64,000 nucleotides of DNA from Candidatus Marinacidobacterales bacterium (GTDB taxonomy: Bacteria > Acidobacteriota > Vicinamibacteria > Marinacidobacterales > SMYC01). Below the pieces are notes generated by a model that ran no database searches, had not been told where the DNA came from, and saw only the letters and a program-made list of their open reading frames with translations. The DNA lies in assembly GCA_965224085.1 (NCBI GenBank), contig CBDCYI010000005.1, forward strand, positions 2,144,001-2,208,000. The letters are read 5' to 3'. Made by a program: the position numbers and the translations under genes. Shown piece by piece: positions 4,284 through 14,801 of the stretch (position 1 is its first letter; every line of letters starts with the position of its first letter).

Positions 4284-4290
4284 GGGGATG
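4284..4290. repeat. Detached outer tip of the IS256 left TIR (3' exon of intron copy A)
   Basis: GGGGATG; removing 4291-6183 rebuilds GGGGATG-TCCCGGCCGCTGTTGAATTTGG, an IS256-like terminus; the exact outer base (4284 or 4285) is uncertain. Confidence 0.7.
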
Positions 4291-6183
4291 GTCGAGTAGC
4301 TCAGCCATTCGGCTTTCGCCCTCACAGATCCGAGCGTGCGGCTTTCCCGCACTCGGCTCCTCCTGAAGGTATACCCGAAATCAGACAAGGCAAGGTAGTC
4401 GGGACGGAGTGAGGTGAGGGACTGGTAGGGGAAAGCGCTCCAACAACAAGTGAAAACGAGGCCAGGTCATTCGGCGCTGACTCCGCCGACGAAGGCTTCG
4501 AAACCACAACCGTGTCACCTCCTCAGAAAAGGATTGGAGAGAGCGGATGTTGCTGGGAAGTCCGTAGTACGCGTAGTGACCGCGCAGCACCTGGCAAAGC
4601 CAGCGATGCTGGACGGCGACTGGAGCATGCATACGTTGCTTCGCGCGAAGCCGTAGCGACTTGAGTTTGGCTCGTAGCCGCTGGCTCTGCGTTTTGCGCT
4701 TCACGACGAAACGGCCATCGCGGGTTCTCCCACAATAATGAGTGAAACCCAGGAAAGCGAACGTCGCACACCGCCAAAGGCCCCGTTGCTCGCGTGACAA
4801 GGAAGGTAATCTCCCGAACTCGAGCAAACGGGTCTTGTTCTCGTGGAGCGCAAGCCCGAATCGGGCTAGTCGCTCCTTGAGCGCTCTCATCATCCTGCTG
4901 GCATCGGTCCGATGCTGGAAGCCCATGACGAAGTCGTCAGCGTATCGCACGATGGAAATACGGCCTTGTGCTTCGAGCCGGCGCCATCGATGAACCCACA
5001 GATCTAGAACGTAGTGCAGAAAGACGTTAGCCAAGAGCGGGCTCACACCTGCCCCTTGCGGTGTCCCTTCAGTTGTCTCGCTCCACTCTCCTTTCTCCAG
5101 CACGCCGGCTCGCAACCACTGACGGATGAGTCGAAGGATGCGTTTGTCGGCGACCCGGTGCGAAAGCATCCGCATCAACCACTCGTGGTCCACCGAGTCG
5201 AAGAACTTGCGGATGTCCGCGTCGAGAACCCAGTTCACGCGTTGCGTCATGAGCGCGGTGTGGAGCGCGTGCAACGCTTGGTGCGGGCTCCGTCCGGGCC
5301 GAAACCCGTACGAGAACCCGATGAAATCGACTTCGTAGACGGCGCTCAAAACCTCGGCTACCGCTCCTTGGACAATCTTGTCTTCCAGTGCGGGGATGCC
5401 AAGAGGGCGCTTTCCGCCATCCGACTTAGGAATGTACACGCGCCGCACCGGTAGTGGTCGGTAGCGACCGGCGTGTACCCGCGAGCAAAGATCCTTGATG
5501 TTGCTCACGAAGTTCTTCTCGTAATCGGCGACAGTCTCTCCGTCGACACCAGCGCTTGCGCTGCGCTTCAACCGACGAAACGCTCGATAGAGCGCTTCGT
5601 GATCCACGTGATGCAGCAACGCAGTGAACCGAGCCTTTCTATCTCGCTTCGCTGCTTCGTTCACCCGCGTGAGATTTGGCGGTAAGGCGACCCGGCGCTG
5701 TGTCCGGACCTTAGCCCTCTCCCGTGGGTTCCCTCCAGGCCGATCCCTTCCCTCCACCATCTCGTTGCCTTCGATAGCTTCCTCAGTACTATGAATCGGT
5801 CCGACTTCCGGCCTCAGCTCAGCACCGCGCTTCGGTTTTCCCTTGCGCGACGCCCCCATCGGTGACCATTCCGATGGACCCGGCCGGACCTCCTGGGTCC
5901 CGAAAGGAACTCTTCGTACGTGATGTGGTCCACGACCCCGGCGGAGCGTAACCATCTCGCGATAGCGATGGCCCACATGCTGCCTTCATTGACGGGAATC
6001 AACTCGGCCTTCCGCGATATTCAGCATTTCGAGGCTACATTCACACACCCTGCACGACCCCTGTCTACGCTTCGGACCCCGCGTTGCCACGACGCCCGCA
6101 AGACTCGGTCCCGACCTGTCCGCTACGACTTTTGGTCGGATTGGACTTCCACCCATAGGCTCCTTTCAGTTAGCCCAGCGCAC
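4291..6183 (-). mobile_element. Group II intron, copy A (complete, 1893 nt; probably bacterial class E)
   Basis: 5' GTGCG at 6183; domain V GAGCCGAGTGCGGGAAAGCCGCACGCTCGGATC; 3' end CTACTCGAC at 4291; internal RT ORF; EBS1-like loop TTGA-TTCCCG-TCAA complementary to 5' exon CGGGA. Confidence 0.93.
4381..5760 (-). CDS. ltrA: Group II intron reverse transcriptase/maturase without En domain
   Basis: FTALLHHV, AGVDGET, RPLGIPALEDK, SYGFRPGRS, DADIRKFFD, GTPQGAGVSPLLAN, RYADDF, FLGFTH; true start uncertain because ATG 5760 lies in RNA domain III. Confidence 0.92.
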   Translation of the reverse strand: MVEGRDRPGGNPRERAKVRTQRRVALPPNLTRVNEAAKRDRKARFTALLHHVDHEALYRAFRRLKRSASAGVDGETVADYEKNFVSNIKDLCSRVHAGRYRPLPVRRVYIPKSDGGKRPLGIPALEDKIVQGAVAEVLSAVYEVDFIGFSYGFRPGRSPHQALHALHTALMTQRVNWVLDADIRKFFDSVDHEWLMRMLSHRVADKRILRLIRQWLRAGVLEKGEWSETTEGTPQGAGVSPLLANVFLHYVLDLWVHRWRRLEAQGRISIVRYADDFVMGFQHRTDASRMMRALKERLARFGLALHENKTRLLEFGRLPSLSREQRGLWRCATFAFLGFTHYCGRTRDGRFVVKRKTQSQRLRAKLKSLRLRAKQRMHAPVAVQHRWLCQVLRGHYAYYGLPSNIRSLQSFSEEVTRLWFRSLRRRSQRRMTWPRFHLLLERFPLPVPHLTPSRLPCLV

Positions 6184-6220
6184 TCCCGGCCGCTGTTGAA
6201 TTTGGTCGGGTAGCGGCGGC
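6184..6220. repeat. IS256 left TIR, inner part
   Basis: TCCCGGCCGCTGTTGAATTTGGtcgGGTAGCGGCGGC; 22-bp perfect inverted match (6184-6205 vs 7608-7629) plus a further 12-bp match. Confidence 0.88.
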
Positions 6221-6234
6221 ACCTGTGAATACTC

Positions 6235-7530
6235 TTAGGCAGCAAACTCATCGCTGTCAAGAGATTTCTGTTTGCTTCTAAGCGCGTGAACGAGAGCGCC
6301 CATATGGCGATAGCCTTTGATACGCCGGAACTTCTTCTCCGCCGTGACGACGCCGAGAGCGGTCCATCGGCGAACCATCGAAGGACTCTTCCAACGCTTG
6401 ACGTTTCTCGATACTCTTCGAATGGTTCCGTTGAGATTCTCAATGGCGTTCGTCGTGGCAAGAGACTGGCGAAGTAACTCGGGCAGAGCGAGCTTCACGA
6501 CCGTGAGCGTCTCTTCCATCCCTTCGCGAAGGCTTCCGGCAGCTTCATCGTGGCTGTTTCGCTCGAGCCACGACACCAATGCCTGAAGTCGCTTGCGCGC
6601 CTTGTCGGCACTCTTGCACTTGTAGGCTTTCTTCATCGTCTGGAGCACGTAGGCGTGACGAGACTTGGGAAGGTACGAGCGAAGATTTCGGAGTTTATGG
6701 ATCTGGCACCTTTGGATGACCGCGAGATCCCCCAACACGTCGACGAGTGCCTTGCGGATACCTTTGCCTCCGTCCACTACACAGAGAATCGACTCATCGA
6801 CGCGCAAGCCTCGCTCGAGAAGGTCCTGCAACATCGCGGTGCACACCCGAGAGTTTTCCGTCGAGCCCAGCCATATACCCAGGGGCACCTTCGTTCCATC
6901 TATTGTGATACCGAGAGTTACGACGACGGTCTGGCCGGCCACCTCAAGGCCATCCATCATCAGTGCCGCAAGTTCGTACTCCTCTAGCCGCCGAGACAGG
7001 TATTGCTCGAGCTTCTTCGTCGTCTGGCTCACGAGGTGACGGCTGGCGGCACTCTTGCTCGTGCCACGAGACTTCAACTTGGCCGCGGGTTTGTCCAGAC
7101 TCCGTTCGTAATTTCGGGTCGATACCCCCACCAAGATCTGATTCAACACTCGCTCTGGAAGCGGGTCTTCTTCGCGGAAGGCTTCGAAGTGTGGAAGCGA
7201 CGCCTCCTCACCAGACTTCGAACGCACTCGAGGTCGCGACACTTGGATGCGACGACCACCGAAGCTCAGCTCTCCGTTCGTGCTCCCCCAGTGGTTATGA
7301 GTTCGCTCCTTCTCGTGCTTGCCCTTGAGCCCCGCGACCTCCTCGGCGTCCTCTCTGAGCAGTAGGTGCAGAGCTGTCAGTCCTTGCTCGTACACCCATT
7401 CCGTCAGATCCGCCTTCGTGGCCGCGATCCCAGCTATCATCGGTAGCAGTATCTGACCGGCTTGGCCAACTACCTTGCCCGTAGGCGAGTGCGTTTGCTT
7501 TCTTACTGGCTTCTTTGATTTCCTAGGCAT
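6235..7530 (-). CDS. IS256-family (Mutator-like) DDE transposase, intact
   Basis: RPRVRS, GVSTRNY, LMMDG, VVDGGKG, QRCQIHKLRN, TTNAIENLN, KKFRRIKGY. Confidence 0.93.
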   Translation of the reverse strand: MPRKSKKPVRKQTHSPTGKVVGQAGQILLPMIAGIAATKADLTEWVYEQGLTALHLLLREDAEEVAGLKGKHEKERTHNHWGSTNGELSFGGRRIQVSRPRVRSKSGEEASLPHFEAFREEDPLPERVLNQILVGVSTRNYERSLDKPAAKLKSRGTSKSAASRHLVSQTTKKLEQYLSRRLEEYELAALMMDGLEVAGQTVVVTLGITIDGTKVPLGIWLGSTENSRVCTAMLQDLLERGLRVDESILCVVDGGKGIRKALVDVLGDLAVIQRCQIHKLRNLRSYLPKSRHAYVLQTMKKAYKCKSADKARKRLQALVSWLERNSHDEAAGSLREGMEETLTVVKLALPELLRQSLATTNAIENLNGTIRRVSRNVKRWKSPSMVRRWTALGVVTAEKKFRRIKGYRHMGALVHALRSKQKSLDSDEFAA

Positions 7531-7595
7531 TGGTGGCTCCTTGTCCCCCTCTGGAGACGGTTGTTTGGCAGACCTATTCTTAGGCCGGCCAAGGA

Positions 7596-7629
7596 GCCGC
7601 CGCTACCCCAAATTCAACAGCGGCCGGGA
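7596..7629. repeat. IS256 right TIR, inner part
   Basis: GCCGCCGCTACCCCAAATTCAACAGCGGCCGGGA, immediately followed by intron start GTGCG. Confidence 0.88.
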
Positions 7630-8025
7630 GTGCGCTGGGCTAACTGAAAGGAGCCTATGGGTGGAAGTCCAATCCGACCAAAAGTCGTAGCGGACAGGTC
7701 GGGACCGAGTCTTGCGGGCGTCGTGGCAACGCGGGGTCCGAAGCGTAGACAGGGGTCGTGCAGGGTGTGTGAATGTAGCCTCGAAATGCTGAATATCGCG
7801 GAAGGCCGAGTTGATTCCCGTCAATGAAGGCAGCATGTGGGCCATCGCTATCGCGAGATGGTTACGCTCCGCCGGGGTCGTGGACCACATCACGTACGAA
7901 GAGTTCCTTTCGGGACCCAGGAGGTCCGGCCGGGTCCATCGGAATGGTCACCGATGGGGGCGTCGCGCAAGGGAAAACCGAAGCGCGGTGCTGAGCTGAG
8001 GCCGGAAGTCGGACCGATTCATAGT

Positions 8026-10058
8026 GTGTGCTGGGCAGCGTCCAGATCAGGAAGGTTGAAGTCCCTCTGGTGCTCGGATGAGGAGCGCCATATCCAAAAG
8101 CGGGGGTAACGCCTCGCTGGCCGGGGAACGCGGATAAGGAGAACCCTAAACGGGCACGAAGTTGGAAACGATGGCTACTGCCAAGGGGATGTACCTAAGT
8201 TCGGGTTCTGTCCACTGGACAACTGGAGGACAGGGTGTCCACCGCGAGGTGGAATCTGAAGGGTATGCGGAGCAGTACCGGGCCGTAATCGAGGGGGCGA
8301 CCCCGTTGATGAACCGGTCGGCCAAAGGTGGGGCAAGGTCGAGCCTGCACTATGGAGGCGAAGGCGTTCTCATTCACCCACCGAATCAAGGTGTTTGCGG
8401 ACGGCACGGTACGGAAGATCTGGACGTGACCCCAGGAGGGCTCATTGGGTTCCCGAGTGGCGTCGGGATAAGCGACCCTATAAGCGAGAGCGAAATGGGA
8501 AGTGAAGCCGGGTGAGTCGTCGGACAGCCCAATAGTACCTGAAGCGCGGTGAAAGTCGTGTGATCGAGAGATCGGCAGCCGAGTGGGCTGGGGAAGGGGG
8601 CTGGCAAAGGTGGTTGGTGACAACAAGGATGACAGACGAGTAAGGGCGATGACGCGGATAAGTTCCTTTAGTGAAAGACCCAGAAGTGATCGTCCGAGGA
8701 AACTGTCGGCCTGGTTGAACCCAACGGGTGAGAGGAAGGTCCACTCTCTGGTGGACAAGATATACAAGCGGAAGAACTTGGAGCTGGCCTGGAACCGAGT
8801 GAAGCGGAACAAGGGTGCCGGTGGCATCGATGGACAAACTCTGGACGAGTTTGAGGAGCAGCTTGATGCGCACCTCAACCGACTCCATGAGGAGCTCAAG
8901 ACCGATGCCTATCGTCCACTACCTGTTCGGCAGAAACTCATTCCCAAGGCTGGACAACCGGGAAAGTTCCGCCCGCTCGGCATTCCGGCCGTTTATGACC
9001 GCGTGTGTCAGCAGGCACTGCAGAACCGGTTGGAACCGATCTTCGAGCAGGTGTTCGATGCCGCCAGCTTCGGATATCGACGAGGAAGATCGACAAAGGA
9101 TGCTTTACGCAAGATCTGGCAAGAGATCGAAGAGGGTTACGAGTGGATCGTGGATGCGGATCTTTCCAATTTCTTTGGGACTGTGGACCATGAGAAGCTC
9201 CTCGCTCTTGTTGCCAAGCGAGTGTCGGATGGTCGCGTCCTTCGTCTTATTCGCAGCATGCTCAAAGCAGGCTGCATGGCGGAGGGGAGACGGCTCCCGA
9301 CCGAGCAAGGTGCACCGCAAGGCGGTGTGGTCTCACCGATCTTAAGTAACGTCCTTTTGACTCCGTTTGATCGGGAGATGCGCCATCGTGGCTATCGCCT
9401 GACGCGGTATGCCGACGACTGGGTCGTGACATGCTGCACCAAGGCAGAGGCCCAGAAGGTGCTGGCCGAAGCCCGGATGATCCTTACGACGTTGGGTGTA
9501 ACCTTGAACGTGGAGAAGACTCGTATCGTTCACGTTGCACACGGCTTCGAGTTCTTGGGATACAAGATCAAGCGGGGTAGTCGCCCTTTGGCCCTACCCT
9601 CACACAAGATCCGTACGGGTGTCCGCAAGGGTGACCTGTACGCGTACCCTCGACAGAAGTCGCTCCAGCACTTCAAGGATCAGATTCGGCGACGGACCTG
9701 TCGCAAAGCTCCTGTGAGTACGCAGCAGCTAATCGACGAGATCAACCCGGTTATTCGCGGTTGGGGTCTTTACTATCATAAAGCTCACGTCCGCAAGCTC
9801 TTCGCGCGTCTCGATCGTTGGATCCTGCGACGTATCTGGTCGCATCGGTTCAAACGCTGGCGCTGTCGGGGGTGGAAGCAGCTCCCGGAGCGTCAGCTCT
9901 ACGATGAGATGGGCCTCGTACGCTTTGTCTTCCTGATTCCTTCCATCAAGCCGCGATGAATAATCCAACCTTTGTGAAAGCCGGATACGGGAAAACTGTA
10001 TGTCCGGTTTGAGCGGCGGACGGGGGTCAGCGCTGCGGTGCGCCCCCTCCGACCCGAC
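8026..10058 (+). mobile_element. Group II intron C (complete, 2033 nt) nested in copy B; possibly class F-like
   Basis: 5' GTGTG at 8026; domain V AAGCCGGATACGGGAAAACTGTATGTCCGGTTT at about 9978-10010; 3' end CCGACCCGAC at 10058; excision restores CATAGT|ACTGAGG exactly as in copy A. Confidence 0.93.
8649..9959 (+). CDS. ltrA: Group II intron reverse transcriptase/maturase of intron C, no En domain
   Basis: KVHSLVDKIY, NKGAGGIDG, RPLGIPAVYDR, SFGYRRGRS, GAPQGGVVSPILSN, RYADDW, FEFLGY; clearly divergent from the A/B RT; start uncertain. Confidence 0.92.
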   Translation: MTRISSFSERPRSDRPRKLSAWLNPTGERKVHSLVDKIYKRKNLELAWNRVKRNKGAGGIDGQTLDEFEEQLDAHLNRLHEELKTDAYRPLPVRQKLIPKAGQPGKFRPLGIPAVYDRVCQQALQNRLEPIFEQVFDAASFGYRRGRSTKDALRKIWQEIEEGYEWIVDADLSNFFGTVDHEKLLALVAKRVSDGRVLRLIRSMLKAGCMAEGRRLPTEQGAPQGGVVSPILSNVLLTPFDREMRHRGYRLTRYADDWVVTCCTKAEAQKVLAEARMILTTLGVTLNVEKTRIVHVAHGFEFLGYKIKRGSRPLALPSHKIRTGVRKGDLYAYPRQKSLQHFKDQIRRRTCRKAPVSTQQLIDEINPVIRGWGLYYHKAHVRKLFARLDRWILRRIWSHRFKRWRCRGWKQLPERQLYDEMGLVRFVFLIPSIKPR

Positions 10059-10085
10059 ACTGAGGAAGCTATCGAAGGCAACGAG

Positions 10086-11231
10086 ATGGTGGAGGGAAGG
10101 GATCGGCCTGGAGGGAACCCACGGGAGAGGGCTAAGGTCCGGACACAGCGCCGGGTCGCCTTACCGCCAAATCTCACGCGGGTGAACGAAGCAGCGAAGC
10201 GAGATAGAAAGGCTCGGTTCACTGCGTTGCTGCATCACGTGGATCACGAAGCGCTCTATCGAGCGTTTCGTCGGTTGAAGCGCAGCGCAAGCGCTGGTGT
10301 CGACGGAGAGACTGTCGCCGATTACGAGAAGAACTTCGTGAGCAACATCAAGGATCTTTGCTCGCGGGTACACGCCGGTCGCTACCGACCACTACCGGTG
10401 CGGCGCGTGTACATTCCTAAGTCGGATGGCGGAAAGCGCCCTCTTGGCATCCCCGCACTGGAAGACAAGATTGTCCAAGGAGCGGTAGCCGAGGTTTTGA
10501 GCGCCGTCTACGAAGTCGATTTCATCGGGTTCTCGTACGGGTTTCGGCCCGGACGGAGCCCGCACCAAGCGTTGCACGCGCTCCACACCGCGCTCATGAC
10601 GCAACGCGTGAACTGGGTTCTCGACGCGGACATCCGCAAGTTCTTCGACTCGGTGGACCACGAGTGGTTGATGCGGATGCTTTCGCACCGGGTCGCCGAC
10701 AAACGCATCCTTCGACTCATCCGTCAGTGGTTGCGAGCCGGCGTACTGGAGAAAGGAGAGTGGAGCGAGACAACTGAAGGGACACCGCAAGGGGCAGGTG
10801 TGAGCCCGCTCTTGGCTAACGTCTTTCTGCACTACGTTCTAGATCTGTGGGTTCATCGATGGCGCCGGCTCGAAGCACAAGGCCGTATTTCCATCGTGCG
10901 ATACGCTGACGACTTCGTCATGGGCTTCCAGCATCGGACCGATGCCAGCAGGATGATGAGAGCGCTCAAGGAGCGACTAGCCCGATTCGGGCTTGCGCTC
11001 CACGAGAACAAGACCCGTTTGCTCGAGTTCGGGAGATTACCTTCCTTGTCACGCGAGCAACGGGGCCTTCGGCGGTGTGCGACGTTCGCTTTCCTGGGTT
11101 TCACTCATTATTGTGGGAGAACCCGCGATGGCCGTTTCGTCGTGAAGCGCAAAACGCAGAGCCAGCGGCTACGAGCCAAACTCAAGTCGCTACGGCTTCG
11201 CGCGAAGCAACGTATGCATGCTCCAGTCGCC
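10086..11231 (+). pseudogene. ltrA: C-terminally truncated RT/maturase of intron copy B
   Basis: Matches copy A protein (one W/R change) up to RMHAPVA, then reads into unrelated DNA to a stop at 11339. Confidence 0.85.
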
Positions 11232-11279
11232 ATCGGGCTCGACGAAGAGGGCACCAATCTAGTTCTCTCCCGACCGATC

Positions 11280-11858: not shown

Positions 11859-12287
11859 GGCAGTTTTATCGTCGCGAAACTCGCACCGCGGGAGCAGTCG
11901 TAGCTTGTGTTCTCCAGTTCGTGAAACCACAGGCCGCGTGTTCCTGGCAGCGTTTCGCCTACGTCGAGTCCGCCATCGTCCTCATCGCCGAGCCCCATGG
12001 GCCCAACTGTACCAGCGGACTAATAATGATGACGGACAGGTGTGATTGTTGGTCCTTCGCCATGATCGTGATATGGTCTGTGTGCGGTAGTGTATCGAAC
12101 GCCGTTCGCCAATGTTGAGTTGCGCGTCGGGTAGCGCAGGGAATCGTTGAATCGCCACGATAGTCGTCCTCAACGGGCTGTTCTCGGAGGCTGAGCACGG
12201 TGACCATTCTTACGGGCTGCGCGCCCAGCCCGTATGGGCTTTCGTTGTAGTCCGCAGCGGAGCGGGACCTTCGTAAGGAGAGAATGG

Positions 12288-14801
12288 ATGATCAGGACAC
12301 TCGCTCTTGGTGCCGTGATCGCGGGGATCGGGCTGGCAATAGGTAGCAGCCCGGTAGGCGCCTTGCCGTCCCCCGGGCAAGAAACAGGGGCCGTATCCGC
12401 TGCGTCGTTCGCGCGCGAGACCCCGACCGAGCCCGCAGCGCCCTCTCCTTCCCCTTCCGTTACGTCCGAAGCCCTGACCGAGGTGGTTCAGAGCTACTGC
12501 CTGGTCTGCCACGACGACCAGCAGATGACCGGGAACGTCTCGCTCCAGAACTTCGACGTCGAAAGAGCGGCGGAGCAGGCCGAGACGGCCGAGCGGATGA
12601 TCCGGAAACTGCGCTTGGGGATGATGCCGCCTGCAGGCATGCCCCGCCCCGAAGCGGACACCCTCCTGGCGCTGGTGGAGACCCTGGAGTCGAATGTCGA
12701 CGAGGCGGCCCGGACCGCTCCCGATCCAGGCGGGCGTCGGTTCCAGCGGCTCAGTCGGGTCGAATACGAGCGTGTGATCCACGACCTGCTGGCCCTGGAG
12801 GTGGACGCGGGCAAGTGGCTCCCTGTCGACCTTCTCATGGGCGCCTTCGACAACCAGTCGGCCGCCCAGCCGTTATCGCCGACCGTCCTGGATTCGTTTC
12901 TGAGGGCCGCCAGCGAGGTCGCTCGGCTGGCGGTGGGGAACCCCAAGGCCGCCCCCACCACGACGAAGCACGTGAATCCGGAGCGGGTTTCGCAGCACGC
13001 CTGGGATCGGCTCGAAGGCGCTCCGTTCGGAACCCGGGGAGGCATGGTGGTGACCCACGACTTCCCGGCGGACGGAGAATACGTCTTCCAGGTGAAGACC
13101 AAACAGGGGAGTGGGAATCAGACGGCGGTAGAGGATCTTGACATTTCCATCGACGGCGAGGGGGTCGCGCTCCTGATGCTCGAGCACAACGCAGGGGGGC
13201 GCAAGCGTGATGGCGTCGGCATTTTGCTGGCCGACCTGGAGGCGCGGGTCGGCATCCAGACCGAGCCGATCTTCGTCCGCGCGGGCCAGCACACGGTGTC
13301 GGCGGCGTTCGTCAACCTCATCGACGGTCCGTACGAGGATCGGTTCAGTCCTGTCGGATGGTCGGCCACCCATCCAATTACGAGCCAGCAGTACGGAATC
13401 ACCGGGCTGACGCACCTCAGCGAGCTGTGGATCACGGGCCCCAGCAATGTGTCCGGAGTGTCCGAGACGGCGAGTCGCCGAAAGATCTTCACCTGCCACC
13501 CGGCCTCGTCCGCCGAAGAGCGGCCCTGCGCCGAGTCGATCCTCACCGAACTGGCGACGCAGGCCTATCGGCGACCGGTGACGCAGCAAGACGTGGCGGA
13601 CCTGCTGTACTTCTACGACGAGGGAGCCGCCGAAGAGGGATTTGAACGCGGGGTTCGGATGGGGTTGCAGTCCATCCTCATGTCGCCCGATTTCCTGTTC
13701 CGGCTGGAGCGGGAGCCCGCCAGCGCCCGGCCGGGTGAGAGCTATCGACTGAGCGACGTCGAGCTCGCGACACGGCTCTCCTTCTTTCTGTGGGCCACGG
13801 CCCCGGACGAGGAACTCCTCGAGGTCGCCGCGAGCGGCCGGCTTTCGAACCCTGTCGTCCTCGAGCAGCAGGTCGAGCGGATGCTCGAGGATCCCCGGTC
13901 CGAGACGCTCGCCACCCGTTTCGCGCACCAGTGGTTGAGGCTGGAGGACGTCGGGGAGATCTGGCCGCAAGCGTATCTGTATCCGGATTTCACCGGACAG
14001 CTCGCCGACGCGTTGGTGCGGGAGACCGAGCTGTTCTTCCAGTCCCTTGTCGACGAGGACCGGAGCCTGCTCGAGCTCTTGGACGCCGACTACACTTTCG
14101 TCAACGAGCGTCTGGCCCGGCACTACCAGATCGAAGGAATCTACGGGGATGGATTCCGCCGTATCCAGTACCTGGACGACGGGCGCCGTGGAGTCCTCAG
14201 CCACGCGAGCGTGCTGCATCTGACCTCCATGGCGGACCGGACGTCTCCGGTGCTGCGCGGGAAGTGGGTCATGGAGGTGCTGCTCGGGTCGCCGCCGCCG
14301 CCGCCGCCGGAGAACGTGCCGGCTTTCGAGGAAACTCCGGCCGTCGACGAAGGCCGCCCTCTAAACACGCGCGAGCGGATGGAAGCACACCGCGCCAGCC
14401 CGGCGTGTAACTCCTGCCACCGCTTCATGGACCCGATCGGTCTGGCGCTCGACAGCTTCGACGCCACCGGCAGGTGGCGGATCCGTGAGAACATGGTGCC
14501 GCTCGACACGCGGGGCGACTTCTACGACGGTACGCCGATCGCCACGCCCACCGAGCTTGTCGGCGCGCTCCTGAAGCGCCCGATCCCGCTCGTACGGAAC
14601 TTCACCGAAAACCTGCTGTCATACTCGCTCGGCCGTCCCGTGGAGCACTTCGACCAGCCGACGATCCGCGCGATCGTCCGAGAGGCTGAAGCCAACAATT
14701 ATCACATGTCGTCCTTCATCTTCGGAGTGGTGAAGAGCTATGCTTTCCATATGAAACGGATGGAGCCGGCCGTCACCGCCGACGCTGGGGCCGGCCATTA
14801 A
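12288..14801 (+). CDS. Secreted diheme PSCyt/PSD-domain protein (DUF1587/1592/1588/1585/1595 type), paralog 1
   Basis: Signal peptide, CLVCH and CNSCH heme motifs, RLSRVEY, ELATRLSFFLW..PDEEL, RTSPVLRGKWV, PPPPP; AAGGAG RBS before ATG 12288. Confidence 0.85.
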   Translation: MIRTLALGAVIAGIGLAIGSSPVGALPSPGQETGAVSAASFARETPTEPAAPSPSPSVTSEALTEVVQSYCLVCHDDQQMTGNVSLQNFDVERAAEQAETAERMIRKLRLGMMPPAGMPRPEADTLLALVETLESNVDEAARTAPDPGGRRFQRLSRVEYERVIHDLLALEVDAGKWLPVDLLMGAFDNQSAAQPLSPTVLDSFLRAASEVARLAVGNPKAAPTTTKHVNPERVSQHAWDRLEGAPFGTRGGMVVTHDFPADGEYVFQVKTKQGSGNQTAVEDLDISIDGEGVALLMLEHNAGGRKRDGVGILLADLEARVGIQTEPIFVRAGQHTVSAAFVNLIDGPYEDRFSPVGWSATHPITSQQYGITGLTHLSELWITGPSNVSGVSETASRRKIFTCHPASSAEERPCAESILTELATQAYRRPVTQQDVADLLYFYDEGAAEEGFERGVRMGLQSILMSPDFLFRLEREPASARPGESYRLSDVELATRLSFFLWATAPDEELLEVAASGRLSNPVVLEQQVERMLEDPRSETLATRFAHQWLRLEDVGEIWPQAYLYPDFTGQLADALVRETELFFQSLVDEDRSLLELLDADYTFVNERLARHYQIEGIYGDGFRRIQYLDDGRRGVLSHASVLHLTSMADRTSPVLRGKWVMEVLLGSPPPPPPENVPAFEETPAVDEGRPLNTRERMEAHRASPACNSCHRFMDPIGLALDSFDATGRWRIRENMVPLDTRGDFYDGTPIATPTELVGALLKRPIPLVRNFTENLLSYSLGRPVEHFDQPTIRAIVREAEANNYHMSSFIFGVVKSYAFHMKRMEPAVTADAGAGH

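Follow-up and report, generated by a model that had tools for sequence, protein, structure and literature searches.

A window of 64,000 nucleotides (nt) from Candidatus Marinacidobacterales bacterium (assembly GCA_965224085.1, contig CBDCYI010000005.1, positions 2,144,001 to 2,208,000 of the forward strand) contains a group II intron, herein referred to as intron C, inserted into another group II intron, herein referred to as host intron A. Below, "the window" means this whole stretch. Judged from its sequence, intron C is most probably a mobile, endonuclease-less intron whose clade has other group II introns as its specific homing target, at the conserved internal loop of domain III. We put the probability of this reading at about 0.85.

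Nesting of intron C in host introns

Two inverted-repeat pairs, both 100% identical, were found by a repeat search of the window: 5788-6205 with 7608-8025 (418 nt) and 4612-5787 with 10059-11234 (1176 nt). On the minus strand the repeat arms adjoin, as part of host copy A, and on the plus strand, in host copy B, positions 8026-10058 lie between them. Copy B exceeds copy A by exactly 2033 nt (8026-10058), with zero bases gained or lost, and deletion of this segment restores copy A exactly. The insertion junctions read ...CCGATTCATAGT/GTGTGCTGG ... CTCCGACCCGAC/ACTGAGGAAGC, where a slash, here and below, marks the boundary between the two introns. Both introns have the same orientation and the nesting is precise, as in a twintron: the host domain I lies upstream of intron C, and the host reverse transcriptase (RT) and domains V/VI lie downstream of it in other copies. 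An earlier note on this DNA had described an exact nested intron of 2033 nt together with the hairpin discussed below, and both the length and the hairpin and loop coordinates agree with the window sequence.

Copy A is uninterrupted and occupies 1893 nt of the minus strand (4291..6183). It begins with GTGCG at 6183 and matches the Rfam families RF02005 at 5926-6149 (140.9 bits) and, for domains V/VI, RF00029 at 4291-4361 (53.2 bits). Comparison with copy B places its empty target site, CATAGT/A, between positions 5788 and 5787 of the minus strand. In copy B, on the plus strand, the 5' part (7630..8025) begins with GTGCG at 7630, is identical to copy A, matches RF02005 at 7664-7887 (140.9 bits) and includes domains I-II, the joining segment J2/3, and the predicted 5' strand of domain III (8014-8025). 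The 3' part (10059..11234), also identical to copy A, includes the remainder of domain III (up to about 10106), domain IV, and the open reading frame (ORF) for the RT; it matches positions 419-1594 only of the host query. The identity ends at 11234, inside the RT ORF, so copy B is truncated, and zero Pfam matches were found for the ORFs to the right of this break. Host intron A is thus a group II intron by its RF02005 matches in both copies, and its ORF carries the RVT_1 domain.

Intron C (8026..10058, plus strand) begins with GTGTG at 8026 and ends with CCGAC at 10058, in agreement with the group II end consensus (GUGYG and AY). Its boundaries are given by the exact difference between copies A and B, by identical copies elsewhere in the genome, and by alignment with relatives. 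The ORF at 8649..9959 of the plus strand encodes an RT/maturase of 436 amino acids (aa) with the YADD motif, in which Pfam detects RVT_1 (E = 8.9e-43) and GIIM (E = 1.3e-15). The GIIM match ends at residue 409 of 436, and no endonuclease (HNH/En) domain was found in the protein by Pfam, only RVT_1 and GIIM. Its solved relatives are group II RTs, the best being the GsI-IIC RT (234.9 bits). Domains V and VI (9976..10058, plus strand) match RF00029 with 41.3 bits against a gathering score of 40, up to the final base of the intron. Domain I resembles RF02001, with 27.9 bits, under the gathering score of 32. By these sequence features, intron C is an endonuclease-less, RT-encoding group II intron.

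In the source assembly (6.87 Mb, 12 contigs), seven copies of intron C were found, all 100% identical over 2033 nt, spread over four contigs and having distinct outer flanks. Six of them share one site in host intron A (...CCGATTCATAGT/ACTGAGG...), and a full-length host A copy with intron C is located at C9:391587-395512. The remaining copy (L003) occupies ...GGGTCGGTAGT/AGCGTTG... (GGTAGT/A) in a different, ORF-deleted intron, herein referred to as host D. Domain I of host D is of the RF02003 type (120 bits), its domain V match is weak (29 bits, under gathering), and its RT ORF lacks the middle. The genome has 21 matches to host A, comprising 4 uninterrupted full-length copies, 6 copies split at 418/419 by intron C, and 5 fragments. 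Unoccupied target sites remain in 5 host A copies and in 1 host D copy. The heptamer CATAGTA occurs 145 times on both strands, and the occupied occurrences are intron sites only. Placement of intron C is more than chance, because all seven copies sit in domain III-like motifs of introns although the heptamer is so frequent.

Host D itself is present in at least two copies, one filled (L003) and one empty (G000:C4:1591245). Its 5' end lacks a clear GUGYG, and its Rfam match for domains V/VI is stretched over 151 nt, which suggests an insertion or a 3' extension.

Mis-joined repeats in the assembly could mimic such nesting, given the 100% identity among all repeats and the break in copy B at 11234. 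This explanation has a negligible probability in view of the seven loci with their distinct outer flanks on four contigs, the same architecture in unrelated genomes, and contigs of two public sequencing runs. Contigs of run X1 cover the 5' junction and contigs of run X2 cross both junctions, in each case with zero mismatches. Another X2 contig represents the empty form (8025 joined to 10059), and contigs from the RNA libraries X15 and X16 match parts of intron C without mismatch.

Domain III as the probable insertion target

Two scans with the RT of intron C yielded 89 related loci, 13 in species genomes and 76 on metagenome contigs. Eleven of the 13 species-genome loci have 62-80% identity to this RT. 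They belong to metagenome-assembled genomes (MAGs) of Planctomycetota, Myxococcales, Ectothiorhodospiraceae, another gammaproteobacterium, and Acetobacteraceae, as well as to Singulisphaera (four loci in two strains), Caballeronia, and Paraburkholderia. The relatives thus range over Planctomycetota, Myxococcota, Gamma-, Beta-, and Alphaproteobacteria, and metagenomes. Intron ends were placed by profile hidden Markov models of the first 100 and last 90 nt, which gave the 5' junction in 49 of the loci, the 3' junction in 56, and at least one junction in 71.

Among 40 non-redundant 5' junctions, CATAGT was found in 17 and CGTAGT in 15, i.e., 32 of the 40 read C(A/G)TAGT. Five more deviate by one base and keep the context (CGAAGT, CGTAAT, CACAGT, CATGGT, and CATATT), and three lie outside the domain III motif (CCTACG, AATGAA, and CATGTG). 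A J2/3-like sequence, GTCRGN or GRCGGM, is located 4-8 nt upstream in 34 of the 37 junctions for which 22 nt or more of flank were available, and the three junctions without it are the same three that lie outside the motif. The enrichment of homolog flanks for the domain III CATAGT/A of diverse introns, for which the earlier note had looked to the relatives, was thus found. Close homologs at diverse non-intron sites had been named there as evidence to the contrary; 3 of the 40 junctions are indeed elsewhere, and 37 are in the domain III context.

On the 3' side, the first exon base is A in 47 of 49 exons (duplicates removed), and 36 of the 49 matched a strict GRAARG expression. Inspected by eye, the misses are close variants (L031, L038, L066, L067, L083, L089, and L090), ambiguous (L029, L046, and L075), or not domain III (L078, L086, and L098).

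The 5' ends of the relatives are mostly GTGYGC. Atypical ends were found in L030 and L085 (GCGTGC) and in L103 (CCGTGC); L030, L085, and L103/L107 nevertheless keep a matching pair of exon-binding site 1 (EBS1) and intron-binding site 1 (IBS1), and they may be decayed copies or have unusual 5' ends. In L094/L114, an internally deleted relative in the domain III context CATATT/A, 1146 nt remain between intact ends (L094), and this form may be an ORF-less derivative.

The joined host flanks all fold alike, with a basal stem of 5-7 base pairs (bp), an internal loop, and an upper stem-loop. The internal loop has (C)AUAGU/A on its 5' side and GAA(G) on its 3' side, and the insertion is in the 5' strand. 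The strands of the basal stem flank the insertion and covary among hosts (21 distinct 5' strands). When the 3' strand was defined as the 7 nt after the GAAG motif, 7 of 7 positions paired in 10 of 26 hosts and at least 6 of 7 in 17 of 26; when strands of different hosts were combined as a control, these levels were reached in 8.3% and 20.5%. An unanchored search for the closing strand was too noisy (23 of 30 at 6 of 7 or better, against 50.6% in cross-host controls) and was replaced by this anchored test.

The same element is present, uninterrupted, within the inner lineage. In intron C it is located at 8525..8606 of the plus strand (CAGCCC-A-AUAGUA ... GGGGAAG-GGGGCUG), as the predicted domain III of this intron, and the architecture is shared by 36 of 36 distinct sequences. 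All 36 pair at 6 of 7 positions or better, with 14 distinct 5' strands, when the 7-nt 5' strand (the 6-bp basal stem and the base beside the motif) is compared with the 7 nt after GRGAAG. The motif (A/G)UAGUA was found in 35 of the 36, and the intron's own ORF begins about 43 nt later.

Between domains I and IV, group II introns have domains II and III only. The target element lies downstream of a J2/3-like GUCRGA and upstream of domain IV. Since it adjoins domain IV and its basal stem covaries across the insertion, its identification as domain III is supported by position and architecture, with a residual chance that it is the base of domain IV. The placement of the site in the AUAGUA loop of domain III, made earlier from the window, is thus upheld by the facing GAA(G), the covarying stem, the J2/3-like segment upstream, and domain IV downstream. 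Domain III is known to supply stacked adenosines to the catalytic core (PMC4476101, citing Robart 2014).

If the element were DIVa, the part at the base of domain IV where the RT binds around the host start codon, intron C would resemble the inner introns of Thermosynechococcus elongatus, for which a domain IV site is described, bounded by the first and second ATG of the host ORF (PMC2882425). An in-frame ATG of host A (10086) does lie 27 nt after the site, within the stem-loop. However, the conservation of the host A RT with its relatives begins near residue 32, around the GTG at 10183, and the ATG of host D is located 83 nt downstream of the insertion site, past the closing strand of the stem-loop. 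The stem-loop directly follows the J2/3-like motif, is present in ORF-less hosts (L030), and recurs in the inner lineage, 43 nt ahead of its own ORF. A test for a site of the T. elongatus type placed intron C not in domain IV, but ahead of the strand that closes a separate stem-loop. The DIVa assignment is accordingly quite unlikely.

The hosts of the lineage are of several kinds. In 16 of the 20 metagenome loci that were compared with Rfam, the inner intron is preceded by a group II domain I, belonging to RF02003 in 7, RF02001 in 4, RF02005 in 3, and RF01999 in 2. Additionally, RF02005 was found in L032, L033, L035, and the window, and RF02003 in L003. A second domain V or a second RT is located downstream of the inner intron in L030, L031, L032, L034, L035, L036, and L038. 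These host RTs are only 33-45% identical to the two RTs of the window. ORF-less hosts occur too, such as L030, where 205 nt separate the inner intron from the domain V downstream. The hosts therefore span at least four Rfam ribozyme types, and the earlier suggestion that many unrelated introns serve as sites is borne out.

Some host introns have transfer RNA genes near upstream (L077, 1252-1494; L036, 1072-1144; L038, 3518-3590). The two ends of the metagenome contig L045 (24-114 and 4362-4452) share one domain V/VI match, and an Acido-Lenti-1 RNA (RF01687, 47.2 bits, gathering score 37) is located at 234-279, between a domain V/VI match and the host domain I.

Target recognition and phylogeny of the lineage

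The EBS1 of intron C was found in a hairpin at 8343..8359 of the plus strand, with the stem GCCT and AGGC and the loop GCACTATGG. The loop contains ACTATG (8349-8354), the exact reverse complement of the 5' exon CATAGT, giving 6 of 6 EBS1-IBS1 pairs. The hairpin corresponds in position to a variable hairpin loop of the RF02001 alignment. The loop GCACUAUGG on its 4-bp stem contains CACTATG, which is invariant in most relatives. The stem covaries: 98.4% of cells are paired, changes on both sides occur at 3 of the 4 pairs, and 0 of 500 shuffles scored as high.

The EBS1 loop covaries with IBS1 in six lineages. Thus, the IBS1 CGAAGT faces ACTTTG in L056, CGTAAT faces ATTATG in L061, and CGTAGT faces ACTACG in L070, L071, L072, and L113. 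In the lineages outside domain III, CCTACG faces CGTATG (L078), CATGTG faces CACATG (L103 and L107), and AATGAA faces TTCATT (L086). An EBS1 elsewhere than in the ACTATG loop had been considered as grounds against the original proposal, and both the stem covariation and the compensation of exon changes identify this loop as EBS1.

The U at 8394 (plus strand) is a candidate EBS3 that would pair with the first 3'-exon base, A (10059). At this column, 37 of the 38 other relatives carry T, and L078, with a 3' exon beginning with T, carries A; A is also found in L103. Both sides are known, with a change, in one lineage only (L078). Two further contacts were tried and rejected. AAUCG (8288-8292), considered as EBS2 with the exon CGAUU, is invariant while the host positions -7 to -12 vary, and it belongs to an intron-internal helix in which AAUC with GAUG covaries to AGUC with GACG in L029 and L039. 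A pairing of the intron UCYGA with the host J2/3 UCRGA was inconsistent in the larger set and unchanged in members off domain III.

Intron C might also have entered host A a single time, without targeting of its own, and have been copied later as a passenger of the moving or recombining twintron or insertion sequence (IS). Host A is itself multi-copy, with the 21 matches given above, and its six copies with intron C are 100% identical including flanks, so independent insertions are uncountable within the genome. Such a history is very unlikely given that one copy is located in host D, that identical host copies exist both with and without intron C, that the motif is likewise occupied by relatives from different phyla, in four or more ribozyme types, and that EBS1 tracks exon changes.

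An RT tree was built by a quick maximum-likelihood search from 56 rows, i.e., the two RTs of the window and 54 of the 89 loci. The longest ORF of at least 380 aa in the intron segment was taken, the other 35 loci being left out, and three labels were set by hand (L056 and L080 as domain III, L062 as unknown). One clade of 48 rows, with a Shimodaira-Hasegawa-like approximate likelihood ratio (SH-aLRT) value of 99, includes 44 domain III, 2 other, and 2 unknown rows. The two other rows, L078 and L086, group together within it. Outside the clade, the nearest relatives are L096, L097, and L101 (38-42% identity), none of them in a domain III context. The domain III users and their nearest relatives form this one clade.

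The partial locus L098, absent from the tree, has a 3' exon that starts as in L078 and encodes a DDE_Tnp_IS240 transposase domain. Since the flanks of L078 and L098 represent a transposase gene, changes in EBS1 appear to have moved some members to other mobile elements. Both insertions lie in a DDE gene of the IS240/IS6 type, immediately ahead of a YLYRAVD motif. L103 sits in a short ORF ending in GIDWADQKH, which may resemble IS110-type transposases.

In the proposed mechanism, the excised intron C RNA with its RT would read the DNA copy of the host motif C(A/G)UAGU/A. The EBS1 loop ACUAUG would contribute 5-6 bp, and the EBS3 U with the first 3'-exon A probably one more. The RNA would reverse-splice in the sense orientation of the host and then be copied into DNA. 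Replication forks would presumably prime this step, as they do for other introns that lack the endonuclease. The motif, being constrained by ribozyme function, would be present in many intron classes and would provide harmless landing sites, here within an IS. Intron C would splice out first, rejoining the halves of the host domain III before the host intron folds. We infer the DNA-level retrohoming route, the priming mode, and the order of splicing, the last of these because the host domain III, with its basal stem and internal loop, is split by intron C.

Reverse splicing into host RNA, with the twintron reaching DNA through reverse transcription and recombination, is an unlikely alternative to this DNA-level route. 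It would suit a target in an unpaired RNA internal loop, and RNA structure could supply specificity beyond seven base pairs. DNA-targeted retrohoming, however, is described as the established bacterial group II route (PMC12584367), and the clade members off domain III target transposase genes (DDE_Tnp_IS240, L098), which fits ordinary DNA homing.

Several points weigh against domain III homing by intron C. The domain III label is one of position and architecture, and the RT tree comes from a quick search only. The splicing and mobility of intron C are likewise deductions from sequence; the X2 joint 8025 to 10059 may be an empty DNA copy and no evidence of splicing, and the X15 and X16 contigs may reflect DNA carry-over and be no evidence of transcription. 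The six host A copies of intron C, being 100% identical, possibly spread with their host or by recombination instead of inserting six times. Among the 145 CATAGTA sites, 5 are empty type-A sites and more than 130 others are empty as well. Uncompensated mismatches were found in L064 (CACAGT) and L094/L114 (CATATT), and L055 and L081 are mismatched (EBS1 AGTATG against CGTAGT). No EBS2 was found when domain I columns were compared with host positions -14 to -6, the best result being 14 of 39 introns, a background level. Seven base pairs do not account for the specificity.

A further specificity determinant must exist, because CATAGTA is so frequent, only intron sites are occupied, and EBS2 was not found. 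It is perhaps formed by RT contacts to the conserved J2/3 segment or to the target structure. A broader picture, to which we give even odds, is that of a widespread, monophyletic "parasite of parasites" that reads the domain III AUAGUA without a detectable EBS2, relies on such a second determinant, and has colonized several intron classes across phyla, making host splicing and mobility dependent on intron C.

Genomic surroundings, known systems, and significance

The two host intron copies of the window face outward from an IS256-like element, the core of which occupies 6184..7629 of the minus strand (Transposase_mut, E = 4.5e-42) and includes a Mutator-family transposase ORF at 6235-7530. Both terminal inverted repeats of this element carry an insertion of host intron A, 7 nt from the tip (window 4284-7636 and 7608-11234). 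Its 5' exon is always an IS256-like end, and its 3' exon always begins with CATCCCC. The same arrangement was found at C11:1214110-1223407 and C4:252508-259772. With intron C inside host A, the chain from IS to intron to intron that had been read from the window is retained.

Elsewhere in the window, an ORF of 855 aa (12234-14801) has the domains DUF1592, DUF1588, DUF1585, DUF1595, and DUF1587 (PSD/PSCyt) and a weak cytochrome c match. PSD/PSCyt families are typical of Planctomycetota, in agreement with the nearest genome relatives of intron C.

Twintrons are well known (PMC4424553), and the commonest neighbors of group II introns are reported to be other group II introns (PMC7306698). In T. 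elongatus, ORF-less F3 introns inside F1 introns were described by Mohr, Ghanem and Lambowitz 2010 (PMC2882425). As with intron C, the inner copies are identical and the outer copies dispersed, and proliferation without harm to the host was proposed. These inner introns differ in being ORF-less close kin of their host within one genome, and in their domain IV site (PMC2882425), set against the domain III loop for intron C. Intron C, in contrast, encodes its own RT, and its lineage has hosts of four or more ribozyme types, found in several phyla.

In Methanosarcina acetivorans, nested introns reportedly home into related intron ORFs (according to the title of a 2003 study by Dai and Zimmerly), whereas the target of intron C would be a structural motif of the ribozyme shared by unrelated introns. 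A likeness lies in the repeated site-specific homing into group II introns, with a perpetual homing site, for which the Methanosarcina introns are cited in a review (PMC4424553). In plastid twintrons of Porphyridium purpureum, one inner intron occurs in two outer introns, in what the authors present as a first report (PMC4476101). These are organellar, with a domain IV target and 78% identity between the outer introns (PMC4476101), whereas the clade of intron C occupies dozens of outer introns of different classes at domain III. The Trichodesmium twintron (Pfreundt and Hess 2015, PMC4649490) is bacterial, like that of intron C, and sequential splicing, deduced for intron C, was reported for it; it is a single locus in a host gene.

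Specialized bacterial lineages are also described, including IIC introns after terminators and IIB1 introns at start or stop codons (PMC12584367). Intron C resembles them in being from a monophyletic group with one genetic context and in its EBS-IBS pairing, which is short as in IIC. It differs from them in that its context is domain III of another ribozyme and no terminator-like hairpin precedes the site; its domain I gave the RF02001-like match under gathering. No intron-targeting lineage is among those named in the 2025 overview of specialized lineages, as far as its text was available (PMC12584367). A full-text literature search, which did not cover the most relevant older work, returned no description of a cross-class intron lineage specialized on domain III. 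It is a realistic possibility that members of this lineage are already familiar to database curators. Twintrons and homing of introns into introns are thus known, and the specialization on domain III across intron classes is the apparent novelty.

Such lineages and their hosts are likely under-counted, because, as far as two intron surveys describe their pipelines, one excludes twintrons and another misses outer introns (PMC4028801, PMC8919778). If the proposed specialization is true, the conserved core of a ribozyme would be usable as a universal landing pad for another retroelement, and IS, intron, and intron would form naturally layered selfish elements. The recognition problem would be how seven base pairs plus something else pick about a dozen sites from more than 100 matching heptamers. 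The pair of intron C and its host would offer a clean test bed for ordered splicing and for the gating of one intron by another.

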